A stretch of 39,389 bases of DNA from Escherichia phage vB_EcoP-Ro103C3lw, in sequence record MN067430; one strand, 5' to 3'. Each line of letters starts with the position of its first letter. Positions within the stretch are counted from its first letter, which is position 1. Below, piece by piece: positions 679 to 39,198 of the stretch. Both the position numbers and the translations under genes were made by a program. The notes beneath the pieces were generated by a model. It was given only the letters and a program-made list of their open reading frames with translations. It made no database searches and was not told where the DNA came from.

Positions 679-708
679 TTGACAAGATGTACCGACTTAA
701 AGTAGTAT
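679..708 (+). promoter_or_regulatory. Host sigma70-type early promoter, T7 A2/A3-like
   Basis: TTGACA (679..684), 18-nt spacer, TAGTAT (703..708). Confidence 0.5.
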
Positions 709-1653: not shown

Positions 1654-1655
1654 AC

Positions 1656-1781: not shown

Positions 1782-1851
1782 GTGATAGACGAGAGGTCAT
1801 CGACTGATAGGTGGCCTCAAAGATTGCCACTTACATTGATAGGAGTTAACT

Positions 1852-1941
1852 ATGAACATCGGTTACTGGGTATGCTTATCTCCGGTCATCTTTCTGATAG
1901 CTTGGGGACTTCTGGACGCAATCAAGCGAGGGTCATTCTAA
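1852..1941 (+). CDS. Hypothetical small hydrophobic peptide, 29 aa
   Basis: SD AGGAG 7 nt upstream of ATG 1852; translation MNIGYWVCLSPVIFLIAWGLLDAIKRGSF. Confidence 0.4.
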   Translation: MNIGYWVCLSPVIFLIAWGLLDAIKRGSF

Positions 1942-2138
1942 TGAGCTGGGTACTTATGGGTATCTTCGGCTATGGACTTATCGTCTACGTACTGGTGAGT
2001 GACATCAACAAGGCGCGTAAAGTCTACAAATTCAACTATGTACGTATGGGTCGCTGGACTGTACGTCAACCTAACGGGCGATTCATGCGCAACTTAGCAA
2101 ACGTCTGGGATATAGCAACACTTGGGAGCAAACTGTAA
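1941..2138 (+). CDS. Hypothetical small membrane protein, 65 aa
   Basis: ATG overlaps the preceding stop (TAATG); hydrophobic stretch WVLMGIFGYGLIVYVLV; the supplied ORF 1782..2138 extends it upstream from a GTG that lacks an SD. Confidence 0.45.
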   Translation: MSWVLMGIFGYGLIVYVLVSDINKARKVYKFNYVRMGRWTVRQPNGRFMRNLANVWDIATLGSKL

Positions 2139-2464
2139 TGAACAAGTCATACGGGATTAATCTGGTACACTCTATGGACGCAGACATGCAAATGTTAAGC
2201 CTACTGGCTACCGGGTATCGTCACGGAACGTCAAGTCACTCCGCACGTCAACAGCAGGAGAGGGACCGGGTACTGCAAGCAAGACTCCGGGCTGAGGGCC
2301 ATAAGTCCGAGCTGATGTGTCTGGCGTATGGTGGACGACCAATCACCGATGATGGTAAACTTCTGGTCTCAGGCTGGAAGGCGATAGACCAACGGTCAAC
2401 CATCAAGCACACGACTCATGGTGACTTCAGTCATCTCCACGCTAACCCGCTGATATGCAAGTAG
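2138..2464 (+). CDS. Hypothetical early protein, 108 aa
   Basis: ATG overlaps the upstream stop (TAATG); sits where T7 has gene 0.7 but is far shorter and has no recognisable kinase motifs. Confidence 0.5.
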   Translation: MNKSYGINLVHSMDADMQMLSLLATGYRHGTSSHSARQQQERDRVLQARLRAEGHKSELMCLAYGGRPITDDGKLLVSGWKAIDQRSTIKHTTHGDFSHLHANPLICK

Positions 2465-2469
2465 TAATT

Positions 2470-2492
2470 ATTAAACCCTCACTATAGGACTC
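2470..2492 (+). promoter_or_regulatory. Phage RNAP promoter, immediately upstream of the RNAP gene
   Basis: attaaaccctcactataggac; +1 G at 2487. Confidence 0.75.
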
Positions 2493-2560
2493 AAGGTCTA
2501 AGACTTCAGTTAAAGACCAAAGAGACTTAAGTGAAAGACTAACAAACAAGGACTTTAAGT

Positions 2561-5227
2561 ATGAGCGTCATTCAGCTTGAGAAGCATGACTTCTCGGACA
2601 TCTCCAACGCTATCGAGCCGTTTAACATTCTGGCTGACCACTACGGGCAGGACCTCGCAGTCAAACAGCTTCAGCTTGAGCATGAGGCATACACTGAAGG
2701 CGAGCGTCGTTTCATCAAGAATCTTGAGCGTCAGGCTGAGCGCGGGGGGCTGGCTGATAATCAGGTCGCAAGACCATTGATGCAAACTCTGGTCCCTAAA
2801 CTGGCGCAAGCCGTCAAGGAGTGGCACGAGACCCAAGGGTCAACCCGTGGGAAACCTCAGGTCGCCTTCCTGAAGCTGAGCACCGAGTCGAAACCTCGTG
2901 CGCTACTGGTCCAACCCGAGTCGGTGGCGGTCATCGTCCTGAAGATTGCGCTCAGTAAGCTGGTCAAGCCTGAAGGCGTACCGATAACGCCGATGGCCTC
3001 CGCGATTGGTCGCACACTGGAGGATGAAATCCGTTTCGGTCGCATCCGTGACCAAGAGCAAGAGCACTTCAAGAAGACCATCGCCGAGAACCTGAAGAAA
3101 CGCGCTGGCGTGGCCTACAAGAAAGCCTACATGCAAGCGGTCGAAGCCTCCATGCTGGACCAGAAGCAACTGGATGATGCGTGGGGGACTTGGAGTCCTG
3201 ACGAGGCGGTCCACGTAGGAATAAAGATGCTGGAGCTGCTGATTCAATCCACACAACTGGTAGAGCTGAAGCGACACAACGCTGGGAACGTAGCGTCAGA
3301 CGTCGAGATGGTCCACCTGTCAGACTTCTGGGCCAAGAAGATGGCTCAGCGAGGCTACAGCCTTGCGGGTATCGCTCCGGTCTACCAGCCGTGCGTCGTG
3401 CCTCCACGCCCTTGGAACTCAGTGGTCGGTGGTGGGTACTGGGCTAAAGGTCGCAGACCTCTCCCGCTGATGCGCTTAGGGTCGAAGGCTGCTATCGCTC
3501 GCTACGAGGAAGTTTACATGCCTGAAGTCTACGAGGCGGTGAACATCATTCAGCAGACACCGTGGAAGGTGAATAAGAAGGTGCTGGACGTAGTGAACAT
3601 GGTCGAGAAGCTGAACAATACGCCTATCGCAGACATCCCGCAGATGGACCCGATGAAGCCTGAGGAGTACGCAGGTGAGACCGAGGAAGAACTTAAAGCG
3701 TGGAAGAAAGCTGCTGCTGGAATCTATCGCCGCGAGAAGGCCCGACAGTCCCGCCGCTTGTCCCTGAGCTTCATCGTCGGACAGGCGAACAAGTTCTCTC
3801 AGTTCAAGGCCATCTGGTTCCCGTACAACATGGATTGGCGCGGTCGAGTCTACGCGGTCCCGATGTTCAACCCGCAAGGCAACGACATGCAGAAGGGTCT
3901 GCTGACTCTGTCAGTCGGCAAGCCAATCGGTGCGGACGGCTTCAAGTGGCTGAAGGTTCACGGTGCAAACTGCGCGGGTGTCGATAAAGTCACCTTCGAG
4001 GAGCGCATCAAGTGGGTCGAAGACAACCACGACAACATCCTCGCGGCTGCTAAGAGTCCGATGGATAGCATCGACTGGTGGGGCAAGTTAGACTCTCCGT
4101 TCTGCTTCCTCGCGTTCTGCTTCGAGTATGCCGGGGTCATGCACCACGGGCTGAGCTACTCCTGCTCACTGCCTATAGCGTTCGATGGGTCCTGCTCTGG
4201 GATTCAACACTTCAGCGCGATGCTCCGTGACCACGTTGGTGGACATGCGGTCAACCTAACGCCAAGCGGGAAGGTCCAAGACATCTACCGCATTGTGTCC
4301 GACCGGGTGGAAGAACAGCTTAAGGAACTACTGGTAAACGGTAGCGACAACGAAGTCAAGACCTTCGAGGACAAGAAGACAGGCGAAATTACTGAACGTC
4401 TGGTCCTTGGAACTCGTGAGCTGGCCCGTCAGTGGCTGACCTACGGGATGTCACGCACGGTCACTAAACGCTCGGTCATGACTCTGGCCTACGGGTCGAA
4501 GGAATACGGGTTCGCAGACCAAGTGTTTGAGGATACCGTGATGCCAGCGATTGACAACGGCAAGGGCGCGATGTTCACGGACCCAAGCCAAGCGTCCCGC
4601 TTCATGGCTAAGATGATTTGGGATGCAGTGAGCGTGACCGTAGTTGCTGCGGTAGACGCGATGAAGTGGCTCCAAGGCGCTGCTAAACTGCTGGCTGCTG
4701 AGGTCAAGGACAAGAAGACCAAAGAGGTCCTGAAGCCTTGCCTCCCGGTTCACTGGGTCACGCCTGATGGCTTCCCGGTCTGGCAGGAGTATCGCAAGAA
4801 GGACACCACACGTCTTGACCTGATGTTCCTCGGGACTTTCCGTCTCCAGCCGACAGTCAACAAGGGGTCGAGCAAGGAGCTGGACAAGCACAAGCAGGAG
4901 TCAGGCATCAGCCCGAACTTTGTACACTCACAAGACGGCAGTCACCTGAGGAAGACTGTGGTCCACACCCACCGCAAGTATGGCGTGATGTCCTTCGCAG
5001 TGATTCACGATAGCTTCGGGACCATCCCGGCTGACGCTGAGTTCCTGTTCAAAGGTGTCCGTGAGACGATGGTCGAGACCTACCGCGACAACGATGTGCT
5101 GCAAGACTTCTACGAGCAGTTCGCGGACCAGCTTCACGAGAGCCAGCGCGACAAGTTGCCTGAGCTTCCAAAGCGCGGTAAACTGAACATCGAAGACATT
5201 CTGTTATCTGACTTTGCATTCGCCTGA
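2561..5227 (+). CDS. gp1: Single-subunit DNA-directed RNA polymerase (T7 gp1 homolog)
   Basis: 888 aa; long conserved blocks versus T7 RNAP, e.g. WFPYNMDWRGRVYAVPMFNPQGNDM, HGANCAGVDKV, PIAFDGSCSGIQHFSAML, KRSVMTLAYGSKE, NFVHSQDGSHLRKTVV, ends SDFAFA. Confidence 0.97.
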   Translation: MSVIQLEKHDFSDISNAIEPFNILADHYGQDLAVKQLQLEHEAYTEGERRFIKNLERQAERGGLADNQVARPLMQTLVPKLAQAVKEWHETQGSTRGKPQVAFLKLSTESKPRALLVQPESVAVIVLKIALSKLVKPEGVPITPMASAIGRTLEDEIRFGRIRDQEQEHFKKTIAENLKKRAGVAYKKAYMQAVEASMLDQKQLDDAWGTWSPDEAVHVGIKMLELLIQSTQLVELKRHNAGNVASDVEMVHLSDFWAKKMAQRGYSLAGIAPVYQPCVVPPRPWNSVVGGGYWAKGRRPLPLMRLGSKAAIARYEEVYMPEVYEAVNIIQQTPWKVNKKVLDVVNMVEKLNNTPIADIPQMDPMKPEEYAGETEEELKAWKKAAAGIYRREKARQSRRLSLSFIVGQANKFSQFKAIWFPYNMDWRGRVYAVPMFNPQGNDMQKGLLTLSVGKPIGADGFKWLKVHGANCAGVDKVTFEERIKWVEDNHDNILAAAKSPMDSIDWWGKLDSPFCFLAFCFEYAGVMHHGLSYSCSLPIAFDGSCSGIQHFSAMLRDHVGGHAVNLTPSGKVQDIYRIVSDRVEEQLKELLVNGSDNEVKTFEDKKTGEITERLVLGTRELARQWLTYGMSRTVTKRSVMTLAYGSKEYGFADQVFEDTVMPAIDNGKGAMFTDPSQASRFMAKMIWDAVSVTVVAAVDAMKWLQGAAKLLAAEVKDKKTKEVLKPCLPVHWVTPDGFPVWQEYRKKDTTRLDLMFLGTFRLQPTVNKGSSKELDKHKQESGISPNFVHSQDGSHLRKTVVHTHRKYGVMSFAVIHDSFGTIPADAEFLFKGVRETMVETYRDNDVLQDFYEQFADQLHESQRDKLPELPKRGKLNIEDILLSDFAFA

Positions 5228-12972: not shown

Positions 12973-15144
12973 ATGATTGACTTACAGAACATCTGGGGTT
13001 CTGACATCGAGACTAACGGTCTCCTTGACACCGTGTCCCAGTTCCACTGTGGGGTCCTGATTAACGCCGAGTCGAACGAGACCCTGAAGTATGGGGTGGT
13101 GCCGATGGTCGGTATCGTCGGCGGCTTTAAGGAGTATGTGGAGAAGGTCGAGCAGATTGCCGCGACTCCGCATGGACTGCTGGTCTTCCACAACGGTATT
13201 AACTATGACGTTCCAGCGATTGACATCCTGAAGCGTAAATACTTTGGCAAGCGTTTCAACTTCCCGAAACAGAAGATGATAGACACGCTGGTCATGGGAC
13301 GACTGATGTATCCGAACATCAAGTTCTCGGACATGGGCGCTGTGAAAGCTGGCCGTCTGCCACCTAAGATGATGGGACGCCAGTCGCTTGAAGCGTGGGG
13401 CTATCGTCTCGGTGAGATGAAGGGTGAGTACAAGACCGATTACATTGCCAAGTGCAAGGCCGAAGGTATCGACTATAAGGCTGGGGACGAATGGTTGTTC
13501 CCTAGCCAAGAGATGCTGGACTATAACGTCCAAGACGTTGTGGTCACACTGGCCCTGTTCAAGAAGTTCCTGACCGACCAGTTCTACTTTGGGTCTCCTG
13601 AAGCAGGACTTTGGGCTGTGTACGCATTGCGTCTCGAACATGATGCTGCATGGACCTGTGCGAAAATGGAACGCAACGGCTACCCGATGAACTCGGAGAT
13701 AGTCGAAGGCTTGTATCGTGAGCTGTCCATAAAGCGTGCTGAGCTGCTGGATAAACTTCGGTCAACCTTTGGTAGCTGGTATCAGGCCAAGGGCGGTAAG
13801 GAGTTCTTCAAGCATCCTCGGACTGGCGTGGACCTGCCGAAGTATCCACGAGTCGTGTACCCGAAGGTCGGGTCCATCTTCAAGAAGCCGAAGAACAAAG
13901 CTCAACGTCTTGGACTTGAGGAGTGCGAGCGCGACTCCCGCGATACTATGGAAGGCGCACCGTTCACACCTATCGAGTACGTTGAGTTCAATCCGGGGTC
14001 CGGCGACCACTTAGCTAAAGTCTTGATGGACCGTGGGTGGGAACCTACAGAGTTCACTGAGACTGGTAAGCCGAAGTGTGACGACGAGGTGCTGGAGAAC
14101 GTGCATCTGGCAGACCCTGAGGCTCAGGCTTGCGTAGAGCTGGTCCGTGAGTATCTGGTAGTCCAGAAGCGCATCGGTCAGGCGGCTGAAGGTAAGAACG
14201 CATGGTTGAAACTGGTGGGTCCAGACGGAAGGATGCACGGGTCGATTAACCCCTGTGGTGCTGTGACTGGACGTGCGACCCATAGTTCACCGAACATGGC
14301 TCAGGTCCCGGCTAACGGTGCTCCTTGGGGTGAAATCTGCCGTAGCGCCTTTGGTGCTCAGTGGAACAAGAACCACGGGAAGTCCGAGCCGTGGATTCAA
14401 GTTGGGGTGGATGCCTCAGGTCTTGAACTCCGCTGTCTGGGGAACCGAGCGTCTCCGTTTGATGGTGGTGCTTATGCGACCACGGTTGTCGAAGGTGACA
14501 TCCACTGGGCCAATGCGGTCAACGCCGGATTAGCACCTGACGTCAAGCGCGATAAGTCCAACCACGACCATGATGCTTTCCGTAACAACGCCAAGACGTT
14601 TATCTATGCGTTCCTGTATGGTGCAGGGGCCGCTAAGATTGGACTGATAGTCGGCGGTGGGAAGAAGGAAGGTTCAGCCCTGATGAAGAAATTCATTGAG
14701 GGTACACCAGCTATCAAGGACCTTCGAGAGGCTGTGCAGAACACGCTCATCTCCGAGTCCAAGTGGGTAGACGGTGAGAACATCGTGAAGTGGAAACGCC
14801 GATGGCTGAAAGGTCTGGACGGTCGCCGCATTCACATCCGGTCCCCACACTCAGCACTTAACGCCCTGCTTCAGGGTGATGGTGCAGTGGTCTGCAAGCA
14901 CTGGATAGTCGAGACCGAGCGTATGCTTGAAGAAGCTGGCTATGTCCACGGCTGGGAAGGTGACTTTGCGTACATGGCTTGGGTCCACGATGAGCTGCAA
15001 ATTGCGTGTCGTACTCAGGCGATTGCCGAAGAAGTCGTCAAGATTGCTCAACTTGCTATGCGTAAGGTGGGCGAGTTCTATAACTTTAAATGTGTCCTTG
15101 ATACTGAAGGTAAGATTGGACCAACGTGGAAGGAGTGTCACTAA
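12973..15144 (+). CDS. gp5: DNA polymerase, family A (T7 gp5 homolog)
   Basis: 723 aa; SDIETNGLL (exo motif I), VFHNG.NYDVPA, AWGYRLGEMKGEYK, YNVQDVVVT, GAVTGRATH, DASGLELRCL, NAKTFIYAFLYGAGAAKIG, MAWVHDELQ, ends GPTWKECH. Confidence 0.97.
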   Translation: MIDLQNIWGSDIETNGLLDTVSQFHCGVLINAESNETLKYGVVPMVGIVGGFKEYVEKVEQIAATPHGLLVFHNGINYDVPAIDILKRKYFGKRFNFPKQKMIDTLVMGRLMYPNIKFSDMGAVKAGRLPPKMMGRQSLEAWGYRLGEMKGEYKTDYIAKCKAEGIDYKAGDEWLFPSQEMLDYNVQDVVVTLALFKKFLTDQFYFGSPEAGLWAVYALRLEHDAAWTCAKMERNGYPMNSEIVEGLYRELSIKRAELLDKLRSTFGSWYQAKGGKEFFKHPRTGVDLPKYPRVVYPKVGSIFKKPKNKAQRLGLEECERDSRDTMEGAPFTPIEYVEFNPGSGDHLAKVLMDRGWEPTEFTETGKPKCDDEVLENVHLADPEAQACVELVREYLVVQKRIGQAAEGKNAWLKLVGPDGRMHGSINPCGAVTGRATHSSPNMAQVPANGAPWGEICRSAFGAQWNKNHGKSEPWIQVGVDASGLELRCLGNRASPFDGGAYATTVVEGDIHWANAVNAGLAPDVKRDKSNHDHDAFRNNAKTFIYAFLYGAGAAKIGLIVGGGKKEGSALMKKFIEGTPAIKDLREAVQNTLISESKWVDGENIVKWKRRWLKGLDGRRIHIRSPHSALNALLQGDGAVVCKHWIVETERMLEEAGYVHGWEGDFAYMAWVHDELQIACRTQAIAEEVVKIAQLAMRKVGEFYNFKCVLDTEGKIGPTWKECH

Positions 15145-26563: not shown

Positions 26564-28846
26564 ATGGCTAGTAATATCGAATCAGCATTAGCTAACCGGA
26601 CTATGGGCCGTGGTCGCGCTCCGGGTAAAGCTATCAGTCTGGATTATCAGGCTGCAAACGTACAGGGGCAGACAGGAGATTCCGGTCTCGCCAAGGCGCT
26701 CACGGACTTCGTGTCAACAGGCGCTGGCGTCTACAAGCAATTTCAGGAGAAGGCCAAGAGTCTCGGAGACGAGCGGTCCAATGAGATTATTCGTAAGCTG
26801 ACTCCTCAGCAGAGACGTGACGCCATCCAGAATGGGACACTCCTGTATCAGGACGACCCGTATGCGATGGAGGCTCTGAGAGTCAAGACTGGTCGCAACG
26901 CTGCCTATGCGGTAGACGATGAGATTAACGTCAAGATTCAGAACGGTGAGTTTCGCACTCGTCAGGACATGGAGGAGTACCGCCACCAGCGACTGCAAGA
27001 TGCCGCTAAGTCTTATGCGGAAGAGGCTGGGATTAACCCGGCAGATGAACACTTCCAGCGTGGATTTAACGCAGACATCACCGACCGTAACGTAGCCATC
27101 TACGGGTCGTTCAATAAGTATTTCTCTAAGCAGTCCGAGAATACCGCTATGCTGAACACCCGTGTCGAGCTGAACTCGTTCCTGAATGACGGGGACCTGA
27201 TGCGGTCGCCCGAGGCTGGCAAGTCGTTCATGGCTTACATGCGTGATGGCCTGACCACTGCTGCCATCCCGTCTGACCAAAGGGCGACTGAAGTCATCAC
27301 CCAGACGGTACGGGATGCAATCCAGAAGTCCGGTGGCTCCAACTTCCTACAGCAAATCCGACACGAACGTATCACGCTTAACGGTGTGGACGCTACAGTA
27401 GAAGAGATTGTGGGACCTGAGGTCTTCAATGCTGCACTTATTGAGGCCCAAGGCACTGAGTATAAACTGGTAGCCAAGTATCAGGAAGACTTGTCACTGG
27501 GCGTTCAGTCTGCGATGCTTCAGGATGACCCGACCATCGGTCTGGCCCAAATCCAGAAACTCAAGGCTCAGAACAACCAGCTTCAGCCGGGTGAGGAGAT
27601 GACGCCACAACGTCAGATGCTTATCAACGCCGAGGCCAGTCTCTTAGAGTCCGTGAAGCGCAAGTCCGCTGAACAGGCGAAGGAAAACACTAAGCTCATC
27701 CAGACGCAGAACAAGCAACTGGTCATCGACCAAGTGTATCAGCGACGACTGGCTGGGGACAACGTGTCCACCAACTATGAGGACCTCCCGGTCTCTGAGG
27801 CTACTGGTGAGTTCAAGCGTTCGGACATGAACAACTACGCTATGGGTAAACTCCAGCAAATCGACCAGATGGACATCCCGCAAGCTGCGAAGGATGCTCA
27901 GAAGGTGGCGCTGCTGCGAGCTGACACCAATAACGGTCCGTTCCGCAACGCCTTCCAGACGCTTACGCAAGATGCTGCTGGTGAGTGGCAAGCTGCGGTC
28001 ATCCGTGGTCAGTACGACCCATACAAGATGCAGCGCTTCGAGTCTCTGCGCAAGGTCTACACTCAGGACCCTTCCAGCTTCGCGGCTCTCTACCCTGACC
28101 AAGCCTCTCTGTTCACTACTTTCGAGCAGATGGACAAGATGGGTCTGGACCCTCAGACGATGATTGACGCTGACAAACAGGCTGCAAGCCAGTCCCGTGA
28201 GATGCGCATTGAGTCTGACAAGGCGTGGCAAGAGCTGAAGAACGACTCGAAGAACAAGGACCTCTCGCGGCTTCCGACGAGTCTGGACGCAAGTGCTCGT
28301 AAGGTCTGGGACTCATGGTATTACCGTACAGGTAACGCTGATGCGGCGACCCAGAACACACAGAAGTGGCTGAACGAGAACACCGTGACTTTCAGTGATG
28401 AAGGTCAGGATGGTAAGTCCATCGGCATGGTGTCTAAACATCAACTTATGGTCGGGGATAACCCTGAGTCATGGCAGGTGGGTCGAGACATTATCGACAC
28501 CGCTCGTCAACAGCTCATCAAGACTAACCCTTGGGTCGTGAACTCTCAGCTCTCTGTAGTTGAGCAGAACGGCTCGGTCTTCCTTCAGGACGCTACCGGG
28601 ACTATTCGTATTCGATACGATAAAGAGCTGGTAGGCAAACTGTACCGTGAACAGCAGAAGCAAGCTGAGGATAAAGCCTACGCTGAGGCCGAACGTAAAG
28701 CCAACACCCGCGCTCGCATTGTCGAGACTAAAGCGGCTGGTGATAAGCGTCGTAATGAGCGTGAGGCAAACGTCCAGAAACGCGGTGGTCTGTACGGTGA
28801 TGTCTCGCTGGAGGGTATCGCAAACACGCTAATAGGTAAGGAGTAA
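26564..28846 (+). CDS. gp15: Internal virion protein C (T7 gp15 homolog)
   Basis: 760 aa (T7 747 aa); position; SD aggagg. Confidence 0.85.
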   Translation: MASNIESALANRTMGRGRAPGKAISLDYQAANVQGQTGDSGLAKALTDFVSTGAGVYKQFQEKAKSLGDERSNEIIRKLTPQQRRDAIQNGTLLYQDDPYAMEALRVKTGRNAAYAVDDEINVKIQNGEFRTRQDMEEYRHQRLQDAAKSYAEEAGINPADEHFQRGFNADITDRNVAIYGSFNKYFSKQSENTAMLNTRVELNSFLNDGDLMRSPEAGKSFMAYMRDGLTTAAIPSDQRATEVITQTVRDAIQKSGGSNFLQQIRHERITLNGVDATVEEIVGPEVFNAALIEAQGTEYKLVAKYQEDLSLGVQSAMLQDDPTIGLAQIQKLKAQNNQLQPGEEMTPQRQMLINAEASLLESVKRKSAEQAKENTKLIQTQNKQLVIDQVYQRRLAGDNVSTNYEDLPVSEATGEFKRSDMNNYAMGKLQQIDQMDIPQAAKDAQKVALLRADTNNGPFRNAFQTLTQDAAGEWQAAVIRGQYDPYKMQRFESLRKVYTQDPSSFAALYPDQASLFTTFEQMDKMGLDPQTMIDADKQAASQSREMRIESDKAWQELKNDSKNKDLSRLPTSLDASARKVWDSWYYRTGNADAATQNTQKWLNENTVTFSDEGQDGKSIGMVSKHQLMVGDNPESWQVGRDIIDTARQQLIKTNPWVVNSQLSVVEQNGSVFLQDATGTIRIRYDKELVGKLYREQQKQAEDKAYAEAERKANTRARIVETKAAGDKRRNEREANVQKRGGLYGDVSLEGIANTLIGKE

Positions 28847-28848
28847 GT

Positions 28849-29298
28849 ATGAACAACGAGACAGCCAGTGAGAGACTGGCACGTCTTTCCAAGGTTACGT
28901 ACACTGGCTGTATCGAGTTCACAGGAAAGTTGGATAGCAATGGGTATGGCAGGGTTATGGTGGACAGGAATAGACACCTAGTTCATCGCTTGTCCTACCA
29001 GATACATAAAGGCCCAATCCCTGATGGAATGGTTGTGATGCACTCTTGTGATAATAGAGGGTGTATAAACCCTGAGCATCTTTCAGTTGGAACTCAGCGG
29101 GACAATATGCAGGACAAGATGACCAAGGGTAGACAGTCCCGTGGAGCGAGACTAAGGAAATCGTCATTGACGGATTTAGACATTATGGCGATTCGCTCAA
29201 GCCTCTCATCTACTTCAGAGCTATCCGATCGATACTCAGTAAGTAGAGTAACCATCCGCAATATTCAGAGGAGAAAGACATGGCAACACGTGGAGTAA
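28849..29298 (+). CDS. HNH homing endonuclease
   Basis: 149 aa; HNH core VVMHSCDNRGCINPEHLSVGTQRDN; C-terminal helix-turn-helix-like segment LSDRYSVSRVTIRNIQRRKTWQHV; SD aaggag; last 19 nt overlap the gp16 start; no gene at this position in T7. Confidence 0.85.
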   Translation: MNNETASERLARLSKVTYTGCIEFTGKLDSNGYGRVMVDRNRHLVHRLSYQIHKGPIPDGMVVMHSCDNRGCINPEHLSVGTQRDNMQDKMTKGRQSRGARLRKSSLTDLDIMAIRSSLSSTSELSDRYSVSRVTIRNIQRRKTWQHVE

Positions 29299-32200
29299 GA
29301 AATGCAAATCCGGGCAATATCCGTAAGTCCAAAGACCAATGGGAAGGTGCTGTGGGCGATGACGGTGCATTCGTTATCTTCGATAGCCCTGAATCGGGGG
29401 TAAGAGCATTAGCGAAAAACCTTCAAAGCTACGGTCGCCAAGGTTATGACTCAATCGAGAAGATTATCACTCGTTGGGCACCTCCTAGTGAGAACGACAC
29501 TCAGTCCTACATCAACTCGGTCGTGGCGGCTACTGGTATTCCAGCGACCCAAAGTATCGACCTGAGCAACCCTGACGTCCTAGCCTCTCTGTCTGAGGCT
29601 ATAGGCTACCATGAGACTGGTTCCCGGTATGACCCTGAGGTCTACAAGACTGGCGTCTCTCGTGCCTTAAGTGGTGCTGGAGGCATCACCCCAAAGACCC
29701 CACCAGTAAGCGCTAACGTCTTCGACGCTCTCACGGAGGGCTTGAAGTCGAAACCTAAAGTCGCTCTGGGAGAGAACCTTCCGGGCGTTACTGGTATGAA
29801 CATCGAAGGTCAAGCACCTGAGGCTCCCAACGAGTCCTTCGGAGAGATGTTCTATAAGTCAACTGGCGAGACGCTGGACCAACGGGCTGACCGCTCTACG
29901 TGGTTCGGCTTCGGTGGAGCTGCTGAGGCTGAAGTGAAGAACTCTATGGTCGGCGTGGCTATCCGCGCTGGTCAGACGGAGGACTCACTGGATGTCATTG
30001 GCGACGTGTTCAACCCGACCCGCTGGAACAACCACAAGTGGTCCCGCGAGGAGTTAGACCAGATTCGTAACGCTGGGGTCCTGCCTCAGTATTACGGGGT
30101 TATCACTGGTGGCTCCCCTCAGAACCTGACCGAGCTGATTAACTTGGCGCTGGAGAACCAGAAGTTAGACGCTGAGAAGGCTAAGGCCGGGAGTGGCGCT
30201 CAACTGGCTGCTGGTGTAATTGGTGCTGGTGTGGACCCTCTAACCTACGTTCCTATCGCTGGACAGGTAGGCAAGGGTGGTAAGCTCGTCAACAAGATGT
30301 TCACCGTGGCTGCTCAATCTGGCGCTCTGGCTGGTGCCTCTGAGTTGGCTCGCACCTCCGTTGCTGGTGGCGATGCTCATGTGGCTGAGGCTATTATGGG
30401 TGGCGCTCTATTCGCTGGCGGGATGACTGCTATCGGTGATGCTATCGGCAAGGCCCTCGGTAAGTCTACCAATGAGTTCGCTGGTCCGGCTACACGTCTG
30501 GAGGCCCGTGAGACTGCTCGTAACGTAGATGGTCAGGACCTGTCCCGTCTACCAATCCGCGAAGGAGAGGAGACCTTCAGTCACCAAGGCGTTAAGTTCG
30601 CTGACGTGCCGAATGAGCCGGGAAGTGTTCGACTGGAAGACGGTTCAATCCTGATTGGTGAGAATCCTCTGAACCCTAAGACACGTCAAGTCTTCGACGA
30701 GGTGATTGAGCCTGAACGTGCGGCTGCTGGTGTCAACCTTGGTGGTCTCACCGAGATTGGCCTGAAGCTCCTGAGGTCTGAGAACCCTGAGATTCGCGGA
30801 CTTGCAGCTGACTTGGTGCGTTCGCCTACAGGTATGCAATCAGGTGCGAGCGGTAAGATTGGTACTACAGCGTCAGACGTATTCGAGAGACTTCGTGCAG
30901 TGGACCATCGGTTCTACAACGACATCGACGATGCGGTGACTCAGGCCCTGAGGGACCCGTACTTCCAGACCAACTTTAACCGTGACACTGGCGCATTCCG
31001 TCAGGACATCTACCAGCGTGTAGCTCTGGCGATTGAAGATGGGAGTGGAAACCTGAAGGCTGAGCTGACTCCGGGTGAACTTAAGGTCTATGACCTGCTG
31101 AAGAACCAGTTCGACGCTAAGCGTGAGATGATGGAGAACCCGGCGATGTTCGGTAGAGTGGACGCTCAGTCTATCTTCCCCGGTAGCCGCTTCAAGGGTA
31201 CTTACGTGCCTCACGTCTACAGCAACCAGATGAAGCAGCTGTTCATCAACGAGCTGGGAAGCCCTGAGGCTCTACAGGAGGCCATCAAGAAGTCGTGGCT
31301 CACGAGCTATGCGTCCAGACCTGAGGTCAAGGCTCGTGTAGATGAGGCCCTGCTGGAAGCTAACCCGAACCTGAAGCCTGAGGAACTTGCGGCTGCGGTA
31401 GATAAGTATGCCAACGATAAGGCTTACGGTATCTCTCACACCGACCTGTTTGAACGCTCGTCCGTCATGGAGGAGAACATCAACGGTCTGGTGGGTCTGG
31501 AGAACAACAACTTCCTTGAGGCCCGTAACCTGTTCGATAGCGATATGTCTATCATCCTGCCTAATGGTCAGCCGTTCAACGTGAATAGCCTCCGCGAGTG
31601 GGACATGGACAAGATTGTCCCGGCGTACAACCGTCGAGTCAATGGGGATATTGCTATCATGGCTGGGACAGGGAAGACCACTAAGGAGATGAAGGACACT
31701 GTAGAGACCATGATGAACCGTGCTGGCGATGACGGTAAGCTGAAAGGCGAAGTGGCGACTCTGCGTGATACCCTGAAGATTCTGACTGGTCGTGCTCGAC
31801 GCGATGGTGCTGACGATGCGGCTTTCTCTACCGTGATGCGGACCATGACAGACCTGTCCTTCTTCGCCAAGAATGCCTACATGGGCGTACAGAACTTGAC
31901 GGAGATTGGCGGGATGCTGGCCCGTGGTAACGTCCGTGCGATGCTGCATGGTATTCCGATGTTCCGTGACCTCGCCTTCCGCAACAAGAAGATGGGAGCC
32001 TCGGAGATTAAGGACCTGCACAACGTGGTCTTCGGTAAGGAGCTTGACGACTCAATCCGTCCGTCCAAACAGGATGTCATCGACCGTCTGCGAGCGTACA
32101 GTGACCTGAGTAAACCTGTGGCTACTGCTTTAGGTTCTGTCAAGTATTACACTGGTGAACTTGCGGTCCGCTCTCCGTTTACGAAAGTCCTTAACGGGAC

Positions 32201-33176
32201 GACGAACTACCTGTTAGACGCCGGACGTCAAGGCTTCTTGTCTGACATCGTGGAACATAGTCTGACTGGCAGTAAGCGTAAGTTCGATGACCGTTGGTTG
32301 AAGACTGCCGGTATCTCCGCTGACCAGTGGAAGGGCATTAAGTCCCTAATCCGTGAGTCGGTGACTCGTGGTCCAGATGGGAAGTACACCATCAAGGACA
32401 AGAAAGCGTTTAGTCAGGACCCAAGGGCGATGGACCTCTGGCGTATGGGTGACACCATCGCTGATGAGACCCTGCTCCGTCCGCACAAGCTGAGCAACAT
32501 GGACGCCAAGGCTTACGGTCCTCTCGCTAAGACTGTCTTGCAGTTTAAGAACTTCGTTATCAAGTCTATCAACGGTCGAACCATGCGTACCTTCTACAAT
32601 GCCACCAAGAACAACCGAGCTATGGATGCTGCATTGTCAACGGTTATGTCTATGGGTCTGGCTGGGATGTACTACATGGCTCAGGCGCACATCAAGGCAT
32701 ACGCTATGCAGGACGGTCGTGACCGTGAGTACCTCAAGCAGGCCCTGAACCCGACGATGATTGGCTATGCGGCTCTGTCCCGTAGCTCTCACCTCGGTGG
32801 TCCTCTTGGGGTCGCCAACATTCTGGGTGGCATCGCTGGGTATGAGGACACTAAGTTGCTCCGTTCGTCTATCCTTCCGCGCTCACCTACCGAGAAGCCT
32901 GAACGTGCCATTTCCTATGGTGCTGCTAAGAGCGACCCGGTTATGAACGTGGTAGGCAACTTCCTTGAGCAGGTCCCAGCTTTCGGCTACGCTGCTAACG
33001 TTGGCGCTTCGGCTTACAACTTGGCTGGCTACCTCAAGTCTGATACCCGTGTGAACGAGCGGGACTACATGACCGGGATGTATAACACCTTCCGCGAGCT
33101 GGTCCCGAACGACCCAATCACTCAGAAGCTCCTGCTGGGAACCTTTGAGGAACAGGGGATTCACATCAAGGATTAA
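29280..33176 (+). CDS. gp16: Internal virion protein D (T7 gp16 homolog)
   Basis: 1298 aa; from about residue 190 onward collinear with T7 gp16 (RSTWFGFGGAAEAE, PTRWNNHKWSREELDQIR, AGVIGAGVDPL, RLEARETARN, DLVRSPTGMQSGASGK, GTYVPHVY, SRPEVKARVDE, AYGISH, NGDIAIM, FFAKNAYMG, NGTTNYLLDA, DPRAMDLWR, LRPHK, ALSRSS); N-terminal ~150 aa not recognisably similar. Confidence 0.93.
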   Translation: MATRGVRNANPGNIRKSKDQWEGAVGDDGAFVIFDSPESGVRALAKNLQSYGRQGYDSIEKIITRWAPPSENDTQSYINSVVAATGIPATQSIDLSNPDVLASLSEAIGYHETGSRYDPEVYKTGVSRALSGAGGITPKTPPVSANVFDALTEGLKSKPKVALGENLPGVTGMNIEGQAPEAPNESFGEMFYKSTGETLDQRADRSTWFGFGGAAEAEVKNSMVGVAIRAGQTEDSLDVIGDVFNPTRWNNHKWSREELDQIRNAGVLPQYYGVITGGSPQNLTELINLALENQKLDAEKAKAGSGAQLAAGVIGAGVDPLTYVPIAGQVGKGGKLVNKMFTVAAQSGALAGASELARTSVAGGDAHVAEAIMGGALFAGGMTAIGDAIGKALGKSTNEFAGPATRLEARETARNVDGQDLSRLPIREGEETFSHQGVKFADVPNEPGSVRLEDGSILIGENPLNPKTRQVFDEVIEPERAAAGVNLGGLTEIGLKLLRSENPEIRGLAADLVRSPTGMQSGASGKIGTTASDVFERLRAVDHRFYNDIDDAVTQALRDPYFQTNFNRDTGAFRQDIYQRVALAIEDGSGNLKAELTPGELKVYDLLKNQFDAKREMMENPAMFGRVDAQSIFPGSRFKGTYVPHVYSNQMKQLFINELGSPEALQEAIKKSWLTSYASRPEVKARVDEALLEANPNLKPEELAAAVDKYANDKAYGISHTDLFERSSVMEENINGLVGLENNNFLEARNLFDSDMSIILPNGQPFNVNSLREWDMDKIVPAYNRRVNGDIAIMAGTGKTTKEMKDTVETMMNRAGDDGKLKGEVATLRDTLKILTGRARRDGADDAAFSTVMRTMTDLSFFAKNAYMGVQNLTEIGGMLARGNVRAMLHGIPMFRDLAFRNKKMGASEIKDLHNVVFGKELDDSIRPSKQDVIDRLRAYSDLSKPVATALGSVKYYTGELAVRSPFTKVLNGTTNYLLDAGRQGFLSDIVEHSLTGSKRKFDDRWLKTAGISADQWKGIKSLIRESVTRGPDGKYTIKDKKAFSQDPRAMDLWRMGDTIADETLLRPHKLSNMDAKAYGPLAKTVLQFKNFVIKSINGRTMRTFYNATKNNRAMDAALSTVMSMGLAGMYYMAQAHIKAYAMQDGRDREYLKQALNPTMIGYAALSRSSHLGGPLGVANILGGIAGYEDTKLLRSSILPRSPTEKPERAISYGAAKSDPVMNVVGNFLEQVPAFGYAANVGASAYNLAGYLKSDTRVNERDYMTGMYNTFRELVPNDPITQKLLLGTFEEQGIHIKD

Positions 33177-33240: not shown

Positions 33241-35331
33241 ATGGCTAATACCACTATTACGCAGTTCCCTACTGGGCAGACTCAGTACAAGATTAACTTT
33301 GACTATCTGGCCCGGACCTTCGTGGTGGTCACTTTAATCAACAGTGCTGACCAAGCGGACAACAAGGTCCTGACGGTAGGTAATGACTATCGGTTCATCA
33401 CTGCCACGACTATTGAGCTTCTGGCCGACCAGACGGGCTTCGATATTGTCCAGATTCACCGCTTCACGGGGACCGGACTTCTGGTCAGCTTCCGTGACGG
33501 CTCGGTCCTGACTGCCAACGACTTAACCACGTCCGAGCTTCAGGCTATCCATATCGCCGAGGAGGGCCGAGACCAGACTTCAGGTCTTGCCAAGCAGTAT
33601 GCGGACCAAGCGATTGCTGCTGGTACTGACGCTCAGTCTATCTTAGACAACATCATCAAGATGGGAAAGAACGGTTACACTCCAGTTGGCTCCTTTGAGG
33701 CCGGGGCGACCGTCAACCTTCAGAATGACGCTGTTCAGTTTGGCACTGGTGCTGCTATTACTCACTGGCGCTGGGAAGGCACACTACCTAAAGTCGTTCC
33801 ACCTAACTCGACACCAACGTCTACTGGTGGTATCGGTCACGGTAAGTGGATTGACGTAACGGACGCGACTCTGCGTGGTGCGCTGGCTCAACTGACTGGT
33901 GCCTCTCTGGTCATGACCTCTAACGGTAAGACCGTGGAGGAGCGCCTGTCTGGGACCTTACGTGTCGTGGACTCGGTGAAGGACTTGGAGTCGCTGGTTC
34001 CGCAGCAGGACGGTGAGATTGTCATCGCTCGTTGGGCTGCTTATCCGAAGCTGGTGGGCGTCAACTGTGGTCCGGTGGGCGGCGGTATGTTCATCGCCTA
34101 CAACGACAATCCGGCAGTCCCTAAAGATGGTGGCTTCTTTGTGGACAGTCCGTCTCCGACCCTTAAGTGGCGACGTATGGCTGAGAACACAGGCTATTAT
34201 CCGGTTGCTTGGTGGGGCGTAATTCCTGATCACTATACCGATAACGCTGACAACATCACTCGTGCGCACAACTTTGCGAAGCGAGCTTGGCGTGTTCTTC
34301 AGTACGACTTCGGTACATACCTGACGTCCAAGGCTGTTCCAATCTACAGTCGCATGGGCATCAAGGGGACCGGACGTGCTGACGGTACTGTCATTGCCAA
34401 GACCACGAACGATGCGTTCAACCTGCTCAAAGCTGACGGCACTGTAGGTGAGGCCGTGGATGCTCTGGCAGTAATGGTCCCTGATGCTTACGACCGAGCG
34501 TCTCCTTACATGGACAGCTTCTGTATCCACGGACGTATCGAGGACATTATGTTTAAACGTAATGGTCTCTCAGAGGCTAACTACAACACCATGCGTCCTC
34601 AGTATGGTCTGTTCATGAACAAGGGTGGCTCACCTGTCCTCAAGCATACCAACTTCGAGGGTGCGTATATCGGCATTCGAGCCTACGTGTGCTTCTCGTC
34701 AACCATCTCTGCGGTCGCCACAACCAACTGGCGCGGCAAGGGTTACGCTGGTCTTTATATTGAGGACTACCGTGATGGCAGCTTGATGTCTTCAGGCACG
34801 AGTAATGACATCCGTCTGTTCCAATCCCGAGGGTATCAGCATGGGGTAAGCATGTCCCGTATGCAGTACACCACGATGATCAACTGCTCTGTAGAGGAGT
34901 GCTTCAAGTCTCCGGGTGAAACTTACGCTTACGCCTATAAGTTCATCGACCCGTTCTCTATTCATCTCTCCACCTGCGCGACTGAGTTCGTTGAAGGCGG
35001 TCAGATTCAGATTACAGGCTTCGCTAACCCCGGATTCAGACCGTCCATCACTATCACCGAATACTTTGCGGTTGACCAGCAGAACCCTGCTACGGCCCAC
35101 AATATCATCGACATTGATAATGGTGGTGTTGCACGGTGTACGGTCAAGGTTATTGGTGGTGACTGGACGCATGACCCTCGCACACCTAACGTGGGTTCCC
35201 CTAGAGCTGCTGGTTCTGGGACTGTAGTCACTACTATCGGGACCACTGGCGCTGAAGGTCCTAACTGGCTGCTGAGCGGTGGTGCTAAAGTGGTTGACAT
35301 CGAGAACGCTACGAACACACGGAGTTCTTAA
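33241..35331 (+). CDS. gp17: Tail fibre protein (T7 gp17 homolog; N-terminal anchor conserved, C-terminal region divergent)
   Basis: 696 aa; N-terminal ~150 aa ([14 protein letters not shown]...VLT.GNDYRF...[12 protein letters not shown]...IHIAEEGRD) matches T7 gp17; the remaining ~550 aa show no T7-like similarity. Confidence 0.9.
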
Positions 35332-35371
35332 ACTTTGGGTCAAGGACGACCCGTTTAACAATGGAGGTATT

Positions 35372-35566
35372 ATGATTGAGTTCGACTTCAAGAATGAGGT
35401 CCTCAAAGCCTCGCCTATCGTCGGGACCGCTGCGGCTGATGGTGCCAGTCGGTTCTTCTTTGGGTTAACACTCAACGAATGGTTCTACGTCGCTGCCATC
35501 GCGTACACCGTGGTGCAGATTGGCGTCCTAATTTACAAGACGATTAAGAGCGGAGGTAAGACATGA
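35372..35566 (+). CDS. gp17.5: Class II holin (T7 gp17.5 homolog)
   Basis: 64 aa from ATG 35372 (SD ggaggt); KASPIVGTAAADGASRFFFGLTLNEWFYVAAIAYTVVQIG is near-identical to the T7 holin. Confidence 0.9.
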   Translation: MIEFDFKNEVLKASPIVGTAAADGASRFFFGLTLNEWFYVAAIAYTVVQIGVLIYKTIKSGGKT

Positions 35567-35826
35567 CGCAGATGGACTTAGAGAAGTTCCTGTTAATGCT
35601 GGACACCGAACGTGCTCGACTAATGCTGCAAGACCTGCGGGATGACTCTAAGCGTTCGCCCCAGCTCTACAACTCCATCGAGAAGCTGCTGGCCCGTCAC
35701 AACTTTGTGTTAAGCAAGGTGTCGGTGGACGAGAAGCAGTTGGCAGACATGGAGGCGCTGAACCGAGAGTACGACAAGGTTCTCTCAGCGACCGAGGATA
35801 ATGACACCGGGTATGGTGTCCAGTAA
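35563..35826 (+). CDS. gp18: Terminase small subunit (T7 gp18 homolog)
   Basis: 87 aa; F.LMLDT..A..ML.DL.D..RSPQLYN.I.KLL.RH.F matches T7 gp18; ATG overlaps the holin stop (ATGA). Confidence 0.88.
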   Translation: MTQMDLEKFLLMLDTERARLMLQDLRDDSKRSPQLYNSIEKLLARHNFVLSKVSVDEKQLADMEALNREYDKVLSATEDNDTGYGVQ

Positions 35827-35882
35827 GTGTTAGACTCAAGGTCATCTATTGGTGGCCTTTATGATTAACACTAGGAGGTGGT

Positions 35883-36254
35883 ATGGTATCGGAAGATGTT
35901 ATAAAGGCTAACGTTCAAGCTGCTCGTAAATTACGAGAGGAACGGGAGGAACGAAGAAAGAGGACTAAGCGCATTTCGCAGATAAAGAGCCTATATGGTC
36001 TCACGCTTGAACAGTTCGAGGACCTGATGGACTCGGTGGGAAGCTCATGCGAGATTTACAAGACTCCGCTTAAAGTAGGTGGGAAGAAAGGAGATACAGA
36101 CTCTGCGTGTATTGACCACTGTCATTCCACTGGGGTGATTAGAGGGGTTTTATGCCGCAAGTGCAATGCAGCAATTGGCGCACTGGGAGATACTACATCT
36201 AGTGTCCAGCGGGCTGTTTCATACCTAGAGAAGACGCTTGTACGTCGATTCTGA
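35883..36254 (+). CDS. Endonuclease VII-family protein (recombination endonuclease VII-like zinc/HNH-type nuclease)
   Basis: 123 aa; SLYGLTLEQFEDLM....SCEIY..........CIDHCHSTGVIRGVLCRKCNAAIGALGD fits the Endonuclease_7 family pattern (YG.T.E.Y......C..C.....DH.H.TG..RG.LC..CN...G); SD aggagg; no gene at this position in T7. Confidence 0.75.
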   Translation: MVSEDVIKANVQAARKLREEREERRKRTKRISQIKSLYGLTLEQFEDLMDSVGSSCEIYKTPLKVGGKKGDTDSACIDHCHSTGVIRGVLCRKCNAAIGALGDTTSSVQRAVSYLEKTLVRRF

Positions 36255-36722: not shown

Positions 36723-38482
36723 GTCAAGACTTAGCGGCGCGTCAGGCGCTTATGACTGCCCGTATGAAGGCAGACTTCGTGTTCTTCCTGTTCGTCCTGT
36801 GGAAAGCTCTGTCCCTCCCGGTCCCGACTCGCTGTCAGATTGACATGGCGAAGAAACTATCGGCTGGGGACAACAGGCGTTTCATCCTACAGGCGTTCCG
36901 TGGTATCGGGAAGTCCTTCATTACGTGTGCCTTCGTGGTCTGGAAGCTGTGGAATAACCCGGACTTGAAGTTCATGATTGTGTCGGCCTCAAAGGAACGT
37001 GCTGACGCTAACTCCATCTTCATCAAGCGAATCATCGACCTGATGCCTCAGCTCCAAGAGTTGAAGCCTAAGCAGGGCCAGCGAGACGCTGTAATCAGCT
37101 TTGACGTAGGGCCAGCCAAGCCAGACCACTCACCTTCGGTTAAGTCCGTGGGTATCACTGGTCAGCTTACTGGTAGCCGTGCGGACATCCTGATTGCCGA
37201 TGACGTGGAGGTTCCGGGTAACTCAGCGACTCAGGCTGCGAGAGACCGACTGTCCGAGCTGGTAAAAGAGTTCGACGCAATCCTGAAGCCGGGCGGTACG
37301 GTTATCTATCTGGGTACTCCTCAGACCGAGATGACCTTGTATCGTCAGCTTGAGGGTCGCGGCTACTCTACGACTATCTGGCCTGCCCGGTATCCACGCG
37401 ATGAGAAGGACTGGAAGTCTTACGGAGACCGTCTGGCTCCGATGCTTCAGGCTGAGCTTGAGTCCGACCCTGAGGGCTACTACTGGCTCCCAACGGATGA
37501 GGTGCGCTTTGATGACGAGGACCTGAAGGAACGTGAGTTGTCCTACGGTAAGGCTGGCTTCGCTCTCCAGTTCATGCTCAACCCTAACCTAGGGGATGCT
37601 GAGAAGTACCCGCTGAAGCTCCGTGACCTTATCGTAGCGGACTTGGACCCTGAGTCCAGCCCTATGGTCTACCAGTGGCTCCCGAACCTCCAGAACAAGC
37701 GGGATGACGTTCCTAACGTGGGACTCATGGGTGACACCTACCACACGTATCAAACTGTAGGTTCTGCTTTCAGTTCGTACACCCAGAAGATTCTGGTCAT
37801 TGACCCTAGTGGTCGTGGTAAGGATGAGACGGGCTATGCGGTACTGTATCAGCTCAACGGCTACATCTTCGTGATGGAAGCTGGTGGTATGCGCGGTGGC
37901 TATGAGGACTCTACGCTGGAAGCTCTGGCGAAGATTGGGCGCAAGTGGAAGATTAACGAGTACGTCATTGAGGGTAACTTCGGTGATGGTATGTACCTCG
38001 AACTATTCAAGCCTGTAGCGGCCCGTATCCACCCGGCAGCAGTGACCGAGGTCAAGAGCAAGGGTCAGAAGGAACTACGCATCTGCGACGTTCTGGAGCC
38101 TATCATGGGGTCTCACCGACTCATCGTGAATGCTTCAACCATTGTGTCTGACTACCAGACAGCCTCTGATAAGGATGGCGTCCGTAACCCTATCTACTCT
38201 CTGTTCTACCAGATGACCCGTATCAGCCGTGAACGTGGAGCCTTGGCACACGATGACCGACTTGATGCGCTGGCTATCGGTGTACAGTTCTTCGTAGAGT
38301 CTATGGCTAAGGATGCCGTGAAGGGCCAGCGTGAAGTCACCGAGGAGTGGCTGGAGGAGCAGATGGAAGACCCGAAGAAAGGCTTTAAGTCCATCGAGAC
38401 GGACTACTGGGACAATGGGGTACGAGTCCAGTTCAATACAGATGATGACTTGGGCTTAGGGTCCTACGTTCAGTTCCACTAG
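36719..38482 (+). CDS. gp19: Terminase large subunit (T7 gp19 homolog)
   Basis: 587 aa; [120 protein letters not shown]; apparent TTG start after SD aaggaggtg. Confidence 0.96.
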
Positions 38483-38574
38483 CAGTTTTCATAAAGTACC
38501 GCTTTAGTTGCATGAATACGCACTATGTAAGTCGGTACATAACGCTCGTAACTCTATGTATTCCTTAGGAAAAT

Positions 38575-38597
38575 CTTATACCCTCACTATAGGAAAG
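38575..38597 (+). promoter_or_regulatory. Phage RNAP promoter near the right end (phiOR position)
   Basis: cttataccctcactataggaaag; +1 G at 38592. Confidence 0.75.
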
Positions 38598-38770
38598 ACC
38601 CCGGTTACTTATAGTAAAGACTCAATGAATAATCATATGCAGACTTTATGCAAGACCTTAGGAGGCAGACTCCTGAGTTCTTACCTAAGGTTCGCACCGA
38701 TGGAGAGGGTGATTGTAATCATCACACCCTCATAACTTAAGTAGACCCTAAGCGACAGGAGGTATGTAGC

Positions 38771-38929
38771 ATGGGTAAGACCAAAGCTGTTCTCAAAGCT
38801 CTGGCGACCAATAGAGCTACGTACAGGTTTCTTGCTGCTGTTCTACTTGCTGCTGGCGTTACTGCTGGAAGTCAGTGGGTCGGGTGGGTCGAGACTCTCG
38901 TATGTACTCTGGTGTCTGAGTGTCATTAA
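38771..38929 (+). CDS. Hypothetical small hydrophobic protein, 52 aa (gene 19.5 position)
   Basis: SD aggagg before ATG 38771; hydrophobic core LAAVLLAAGVTAG; not in the ORF track because it is under 60 aa. Confidence 0.45.
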   Translation: MGKTKAVLKALATNRATYRFLAAVLLAAGVTAGSQWVGWVETLVCTLVSECH

Positions 38930-39198
38930 TGCCATCATGGTAACAATCAACGAAAGGAGGTAGTATGATCGGTTACGGCGAAGGCTGAAGACCTAAGGTC
39001 AGTACGTGGATAAAGACTCACTCTACTGACCTTAGCTACTGTAGTCAAGGACTTTAGGTAACACCTTAAGAGAAGCTCACTTAGGGTCATCCTACTTACT
39101 GGTCTACCCTAGTGTCGCCTGACCTACGGTCCTTGACCTACAGTGGCTGTGGCCTACAGTAGGGACGATGAGTTTTGGACCAAAAGTTCGAGAGGCCA

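Follow-up and report, generated by a model that had tools for sequence, protein, structure and literature searches.

In Escherichia phage vB_EcoP-Ro103C3lw, a small gene lies between gp15 and gp16, which code for internal virion proteins. We propose that it encodes an HNH homing endonuclease of the free-standing, I-HmuI-like type, and that it probably arrived there by homing-type gene conversion. The window analysed here is the complete genome of this phage (39,389 bp; MN067430), a Kayfunavirus of the T7 supergroup. The open reading frame (ORF) is intact, starting with ATG and ending with a TAA stop codon at 29296-29298. Its product (QDH94161.1) was deposited as 'hypothetical protein Ro103_43'; the Ro103C3lw genome paper does not mention the gene, and the genome paper of the relative Ro45lw is likewise silent. 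Our reading draws on the domain identity of the product, the anatomy of the insertion, a majority of empty sites among relatives, a co-conversion tract around the insert, purifying selection on the protein and linkage to a flanking haplotype. The gene, its host genes and the inserted segment are located as follows.

28849..29298, + strand: putative HNH homing endonuclease gene, 149 amino acids (aa)
28847..29279, + strand: inserted cassette of 433 nucleotides (nt), replacing the 4-5-nt spacer from the gp15 stop to the gp16 ATG (alignment)
26564..28846, + strand: gp15, internal virion protein C, upstream host gene (phrog_1339, 1091 bits)
29280..33176, + strand: gp16, internal virion protein D, downstream host gene (phrog_342, 1072 bits)

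A precise insertion at the gp15/gp16 junction

The gp15 stop codon occupies 28844-28846 and the HNH ORF begins two bases later; homologous coding sequences of relatives at the gp15 position bear a gp15 annotation. To the right, residues 2-131 of gp16 form an N-terminal cell-wall hydrolase domain that matches the phrog_873 endolysin. We aligned this junction with those of the insert-free phages Pisces, SH4, SFPH2, Dev2, IMM-002 and Monomax and of 13 insert-bearing relatives. Pisces, the closest relative across gp15-gp16, carries no insert and reads TAA-AAACT-ATG at the junction. All 14 insert-free phages inspected, the type species K1F among them, have a spacer of 4-5 nt, and all 13 insert-bearing relatives that were fetched have a cassette of 431-436 nt whose insertion point is identical to the base, immediately 5' of the gp16 ATG. 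The proposal that the gene had inserted at a gene junction is thus borne out by the alignments, which place the cassette directly before this start codon. ST20 (cassette) and Monomax (empty) are a matched pair that agree in their CATA spacer and in the 5' end of gp16. In T7, as the original prediction had stated, nothing is annotated between gene 15 (end 30568) and gene 16 (start 30595).

Carriers are a minority. The cassette was present in 7 of 60 evenly spaced records sampled from 223 related records, and a protein search (tblastn) recovered 23 cassette-bearing records; about 10% of the ~223 related records would therefore be carriers and about 90% empty. This comparison, which had been suggested as a check, yields the distribution expected of a homing gene, which occurs sporadically, always at a single site, and whose close relatives such as Pisces and K1F have intact empty alleles.

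A divergent patch flanks the cassette

Outside a patch around the cassette, the window and Pisces differ at ~2.2% of positions across the ~6.2 kb of gp15-gp16 (~98% identity). Within the patch, the excess of differences over this background is pronounced on both sides, with binomial P values of 1e-5 for the left and 6e-50 for the right tract.

28765..28846, + strand: left co-conversion tract, gp15 3' end, 10 differences from Pisces in 82 nt
29280..29428, + strand: right co-conversion tract, type-B gp16 5' end, 54 differences from Pisces in 149 nt

Beyond the right tract the next 450 nt of gp16 contain a single difference from Pisces, so that the altered host sequence forms a sharp block from 28765 to 29428. 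On the strength of the alignment, this patch is a classic co-conversion tract, the expected footprint of homing, and it matches what has been described for intronless homing by free-standing phage endonucleases (PMC2988022). It is also in line with the location of free-standing homing endonuclease genes at boundaries of genetic exchange (PMC10448857). The same flanking signature is found in PhiNW-B1, which combines another HNH lineage with a Pisces-like backbone.

In carriers such as PhiNW-B1 and T147P5 the type-B gp16 patch is nearly the same as in the window. All carriers of HNH lineages W, A and B have type B (11/11; lineages defined below), and the 14 empty-site phages lack it (0/14; Fisher P=2e-7, a value uncorrected for shared ancestry). 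The only partial case is Monomax, a Dickeya phage (MN812686), which has an empty site followed by ~100 nt of type B and then type A; its junction represents either precise cassette loss or a partial conversion product. The type-B patch is the predicted location of both the target and the immunity polymorphisms.

Protein family, conserved residues and predicted fold

The original prediction of a 149-aa ORF with an HNH core agrees with profile searches: Pfam HNH_3 (PF13392) matches residues 44-88 with 53.3 bits (cut-off 24.8, E=2.1e-14), and PHROG HNH families match the protein with a best E of 6e-34. The HNH match is therefore far above chance. The zinc-loop model zf-His_Me_endon (PF05551), derived from I-PpoI, scores 26.5 bits, just below its cut-off of 27. 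The core motif HSCDNRGCINPEHL spans residues 65-78. An alignment of 45 diverse homologs reveals C21, Y33, H46, R47, H65, C67, C72, H77, G81 and N86 as invariant, so the catalytic His and Asn, whose loss would have spoken against the prediction, are retained.

29041..29106, + strand: His-Me finger catalytic core, residues 65-86
29167..29274, + strand: C-terminal three-helix helix-turn-helix (HTH) DNA-binding domain, ~residues 107-142 (AlphaFold2, fold matches, I-HmuI profile alignment)

The AlphaFold2 model (mean predicted local distance difference test score, pLDDT, 89.4) comprises N-terminal beta-strands, the core and a C-terminal three-helix bundle, and in fold it comes nearest to two homing endonucleases, I-HmuI and I-PpoI. 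In the model the core adopts a beta-beta-alpha arrangement, with strands 62-65 and 78-81 followed by a helix at 83-92, and the invariant H65 and N86 lie within it. By analogy, H65 may act as the general base and N86 as a metal ligand, and C21, C67, C72 and H77 may form a structural zinc site. The HTH-like segment seen earlier at the C-terminus is modelled as three helices (109-117, 122-129 and 133-140; pLDDT ~94). Searched alone, this domain matches HTH domains of transposases and recombinases; a profile alignment pairs it with the HTH at the I-HmuI C-terminus, and the CR44b record annotates an HTH in its homolog. The predicted architecture is thus the modular build of I-HmuI, with an N-terminal beta-sheet region, an HNH core and a C-terminal HTH.

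Dual coding, translation and transcription at the junction

The insertion rearranges the translation signals of the junction in a way that leaves gp16 supplied with a start.

28838..28843, + strand: Shine-Dalgarno AAGGAG, used here by the HNH gene (sequence; junction alignment)
29268..29273, + strand: new gp16 Shine-Dalgarno GAGGAG, within the HNH R-R codons (sequence; ribosome-binding site annotation in Pipis)
29280..29298, + strand: 19-nt dual-coding overlap, gp16 MATRGV / HNH C-terminus WQHVE-stop (sequence)
28864..28880, + strand: perfect hairpin GCCAGT-GAGAG-ACTGGC near the HNH ORF start (sequence)

In insert-free phages AAGGAG serves gp16, and the Pisces record annotates this same motif as the gp16 ribosome-binding site. 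The GAGGAG that takes over for gp16 is kept in 14 of 14 cassettes; together with the gp16 ATG it lies inside the HNH codons for R-R-K-T-W (AGG AGA AAG ACA TGG). A C-terminus of the form (R/K)(R/K)xTWxHV is a native feature of the entire HNH family, homologs in unrelated genomes included. The overlap with gp16, noticed originally as 19 nt and exactly that (29280-29298), is thus better described as a genuine dual-coding stretch, because the family's native C-terminus supplies the gp16 Shine-Dalgarno and ATG. Every insert-bearing allele starts gp16 with ATGGCrrCACGTGGwrTrAGr, and every insert-free allele with ATGGCGACTCGTGGTATTCGC.

Conservation at the ends of the cassette (first ~33 nt, last ~25 nt) extends to synonymous sites. 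At the start of the ORF (~33 nt, within 28849-28890), hairpin included, such sites are nearly frozen across the four HNH lineages: third-codon identity reaches 8 of the first 10 codons, compared with 0-1 per 5 codons elsewhere. Protein coding gives no explanation for this conservation. The hairpin was considered as a strong RNA structure and rejected, its folding being not significant (z=-1.87, with 10 of 200 shuffles equally stable).

The phage promoter core AACCCTCACTATAGG occurs eight times in the window, with no copy expected by chance.

2474, 5976, 7633, 8715, 17192, 20015, 33176 and 38579, + strand: phage promoters AACCCTCACTATAGG

None of the eight lies between 20015 and 33176, and therefore the cassette is probably transcribed with the late virion genes. 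The same scan of the window found no copy upstream of gene 13, where T7 has phi13. A promoter or terminator within the cassette was also sought and discarded, since sigma-70-like and terminator-like matches did not exceed the shuffle expectation and no phage promoter was present.

Four old lineages at one site

Each of the 14 alleles at the gp15/gp16 site is intact, encodes 149 aa and retains the core residues. Four lineages can be distinguished.

HNH lineage W: window allele
HNH lineage A: T147P5, ST20, PDP21P1
HNH lineage B: CR44b, EPr2, HC12, PhiNW-B1, PH1061, LNA5
HNH lineage C: Ro45lw, Pipis, TM1

The window protein shares 53-61% aa identity with lineages A, B and C. Synonymous divergence (dS) between the lineages is saturated (>1.6), compared with 0.1-0.9 in the flanks, and the ratio of nonsynonymous to synonymous divergence (dN/dS) is ~0.1-0.25; for gp16, this ratio comes from gapped or pre-indel comparisons only, some phages having an indel near nt 390. 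Saturated dS together with low dN/dS indicates that the HNH lineages are old and under selection as proteins.

The window allele has few close relatives. Its own 90% cluster holds ~10 near-identical, intact variants, all unannotated and from read-archive assemblies, and outside that cluster nothing above 61% identity was found among 5.8 billion proteins. A search of IMG/VR for the window-type allele in other backbones gave a best match of 51%, and when JGI metagenomes were scanned with a degenerate pattern for the HSCDNRGCINPEHL core, the only hits were two HNH genes unrelated to it.

Two Logan contigs carry frameshifted lineage-A copies at the gp15/gp16 junction (ERR11525559_4468, 1501-1893; ERR4096488_135591, 1501-1872). 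The frameshifts are single-base indels in homopolymer runs (AAAA to AAA, GGG to GGGG), and they remove the HTH and leave the gp16 Shine-Dalgarno and ATG in place. These copies are either decaying elements or assembly errors.

Within lineage B, residues ~27-45 come in two forms: CR44b, EPr2 and HC12 have GHLDGEGYGRIMV, as in lineage A, and PhiNW-B1, PH1061 and LNA5 have GSIEKSGYGRIMV/I. Such mosaicism within the HNH gene points to recombination between cassettes. In addition, three of the four lineages share a near-identical flanking gp16 haplotype. The shared slot, the frozen ends and this common haplotype hint at cassette exchange within conserved ends, and we tentatively raise the idea, which is rather unlikely, that the gp15/gp16 junction of Kayfunaviruses is a cassette-exchange site where HNH variants replace each other via those ends. 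If so, homing endonucleases would compete at this junction, possibly with different target specificities, and the conserved 5' element would itself be functional, for instance in translational control or as a recombination or recognition site.

A model for the spread of the cassette

The cassette appears, from the alignments, to have come by copy-and-paste recombination from another phage. We picture the following course. Having no promoter of its own, the HNH gene would share the transcripts of the late virion genes; for translation it would rely on the Shine-Dalgarno that in insert-free phages belongs to gp16, and its last codons (RRKTW...) would provide gp16 with a replacement Shine-Dalgarno and ATG. 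With these replacement signals, insertion should cost the phage little. When an insert-free relative infects the same cell, the enzyme would attach to its empty junction together with the first ~30 nt of gp16, and it would nick or cut nearby. Once exonuclease had enlarged the lesion, the recombination system of the phage would use the insert-bearing genome as repair template, so that the cassette would be copied along with ~80 nt of gp15 and ~150 nt of gp16. Carriers themselves would be spared, their site being split by the insertion and their co-converted gp16 5' end being altered; carrier and empty alleles are separated by 7-10 substitutions in the first ~27 nt of gp16. The short tracts (~80 and ~150 nt) suggest a cut close to the insertion point. 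Nuclease activity, the choice between nicking and double-strand cutting, the target position and the roles of individual residues are all putative parts of this model, for which published systems offer precedents: HNH Mob and I-HmuI enzymes nick their targets, intronless homing proceeds with co-conversion (PMC2988022, PMC3428280), and I-HmuI-like HNH genes group by insertion site and cause marker exclusion (PMC12724721).

Several points weigh against this account. HNH lineage C shows no linkage to a divergent gp16 patch, so the immunity that we ascribe to the patch would not apply throughout. Carriers are 93-97% identical in the type-B flank and only ~60% identical in the HNH interiors, a mismatch for which a simple one-step homing history is insufficient. 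Mosaicism is strong in T7-like phages, the identity of the window to Pisces varying in blocks of 83-97% along the genome, and the patch could therefore have been brought in by ordinary recombination with no nuclease involved. Of T7 gp3.8, gp5.3 and gp7.7, PMC12153263 reports only that they are deletable. In the literature searched, no free-standing HNH gene of the T7 group, gp7.7 and gp2.8 included, has been assayed for homing.

Alternative explanations

The genome-wide mosaicism is also an argument for a passive passenger, a cassette moved by general homologous recombination with a nuclease irrelevant to its own spread, which may be inactive on phage DNA or have some other substrate. Further divergent blocks, such as the gp16 3' end, and the internal mosaicism of HNH alleles between lineages A and B fit this view as well. 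We nevertheless regard it as unlikely: the insertion point recurs with base precision in four old lineages, the short, sharp tract is centred on the cassette within an otherwise ~98% identical 6-kb region, the pattern is repeated in PhiNW-B1, and the nuclease residues are under purifying selection. The last point, a dN/dS of ~0.2 indicating selection on the protein, also bears on the idea of a decaying relic, once mobile and now inactive in this phage, that is retained only for the gp16 ribosome-binding site in its 3' end. The gp16 signals do lie within the cassette, and the lineage-A copies that lost the HTH through single-base frameshifts kept those signals. The window allele, however, is full length with all invariant residues present, and its ~10 near-identical variants are intact, which makes a relic very improbable here.

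Two further readings give the protein a purpose beyond its own spread. As a weapon in competition, the nuclease would damage co-infecting relatives at an essential virion gene (marker exclusion), with the spread of the gene as a side effect. The predicted target lies in or beside the essential gp16, expression from the gp16 Shine-Dalgarno would be late and probably strong, and marker exclusion by I-HmuI-like HNH enzymes is documented (PMC12724721, PMC2988022). The molecular steps are the same as those of homing, so that sequence cannot separate the two; yet the gene is found in only ~10% of relatives and frameshifted copies exist, which makes a strong benefit unlikely, and we give this reading only a small chance. 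A structural or DNA-processing role as a virion, ejection or packaging accessory, like that of terminase-assisting HNH proteins, would suit the position between gp15 and gp16 and the co-transcription with late genes. It can nearly be dismissed: the gene is absent in ~90% of close relatives, K1F included, the terminase genes (35563-35826 and 36752-38482) are ~6-7 kb away, and CR44b notes mass-spectrometry detection for gp15 and gp16 but none for the HNH gene between them. The gene is thus neither adjacent to the terminase genes nor conserved in all relatives, unlike terminase-associated HNH genes. A homing endonuclease gene, as the original prediction had it, remains the preferred interpretation, favoured by the empty-site majority, the invariant residues and the co-conversion tract.

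Comparison with known systems

The best structural and profile match to the HNH protein is I-HmuI of the Bacillus phage SPO1 (PDB 1U3E). Both are phage-encoded and share the domain order of N-terminal beta-sheet, HNH core and C-terminal HTH, and enzymes of the I-HmuI type are associated with gene conversion of flanking markers (PMC2988022, PMC3428280). However, sequence identity is only 16-19%, and the gene for I-HmuI lies within a DNA polymerase gene's group I intron, in contrast to the free-standing gene described here. The cores differ too: that of I-HmuI reads H-x-D-G-N...N without cysteines, and that of the HNH protein H-x-C-D-N-x-x-C-x-N-P-x-H-L, which resembles the zinc site of I-PpoI. 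The latter, a His-Cys box enzyme, is in turn a eukaryotic, intron-encoded dimer that makes double-strand cuts and lacks an HTH tail.

Among T7 proteins, gp7.7 (49% identity, E=2e-42) and gp2.8 (39% identity, E=3e-29) belong to the same subfamily, with a cysteine-containing core and an HTH tail; gp7.7 ends in RKTWRHI and is dispensable in T7 (PMC12153263). Genes 3.8 and 7.7 had originally been named as the HNH genes of T7. Both are indeed annotated as HNH, but gp3.8 is a different HNH subtype (E=0.017) and gp5.3 has no sequence relation to our protein, so that by sequence comparison the true T7 paralogs are gp7.7 and gp2.8. These T7 genes occupy other genomic positions, and HNH genes are absent from the 2.8, 3.8, 5.3 and 7.7 positions in the window; for 3.8 and 7.7 this agrees with what had been noted, none being found by phmmer, motif regex or Pfam. 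Nor was a second HNH gene detected anywhere in the window by phmmer on all six-frame ORFs and motif regex. Pfam likewise revealed no HNH domain in the small ORFs of the interval from the RNA polymerase gene to gene 8; the HNH search of the early and late small ORFs was by phmmer and motif regex only.

Further counterparts are the HNH genes at the same junction in other Kayfunaviruses, namely CR44b '7.7C', Ro45lw gp42, Pipis 043 and those of TM1, EPr2, PH1061, ST20 and T147P5. They agree with the window gene in their insertion point, their length of 149 aa, their frozen cassette ends and their overlap of 19 nt with gp16. Several of these genes are annotated as HNH or homing endonuclease, and the window allele forms a separate lineage among them.

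The overall arrangement is also reminiscent of the Seg and Mob enzymes of T4, which are encoded by stand-alone genes between host genes and whose flanks are co-converted on inheritance; the Mob enzymes are HNH nickases. A study listed as ref. 41 in PMC2988022 reports, to judge by its title, that mobC and mobE are replaced by homing endonuclease genes (SegH, Hef). The T4 enzymes come from another phage family and have other DNA-binding domains. They often cut hundreds of bp from their gene, whereas the tracts seen here are short.

Significance

The kind of gene and its site are already known, relatives being annotated with an HNH or homing endonuclease there (CR44b '7.7C', TM1). New are the distinct, unannotated HNH lineage and the clean co-conversion footprint, and we consider the finding sound but ordinary. 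It corrects a 'hypothetical protein' annotation in a phage studied for biocontrol of STEC O103 (E. coli that make Shiga toxin). The practical value is modest, although the gene could drive recombination with related phages in cocktails. For the T7 group, the 433-nt cassette with its 82- and 149-nt tracts in a ~98% identical backbone is an unusually clean natural homing footprint, and it comes with a concrete target prediction, the empty junction plus the first ~30 nt of gp16. Since the gp16 translation signals lie within the cassette, its presence is relevant to anyone engineering the gp15/gp16 locus.

Elsewhere in the genome

Ro45lw (NC_048136; PMC9866566 Table 1) carries two further endonuclease genes that are missing from the window, one at 14,621-15,016 between two DNA polymerase coding sequences and one at 38,486-39,028 after the terminase (PMC9866566). 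The DNA polymerase gene of the window (12973-15144) is uninterrupted, and the element load therefore ranges from 1 to at least 3 among close relatives. A split gp3 (endonuclease I) gene was considered in the window and rejected, the gene having a GTG start at 9493 and being collinear with Pisces.

Two other regions distinguish the window from Pisces. The tail fibre/spike gene (33241-35331 in the window, 33255-35996 in Pisces) encodes 696 aa in the window and ~913 aa in Pisces. Beyond about window position 33606 the similarity is lost, which leaves the two phages with different receptor-binding parts, as is typical of a swapped host-range module. The early regions (window 1-2500, Pisces 1-3300) differ as well: Pisces encodes an S-adenosylmethionine (SAM) hydrolase and a protein kinase, and the window carries instead a 110-aa ORF at 1166-1498, whose product may resemble the T7 anti-restriction protein Ocr (gp0.3).
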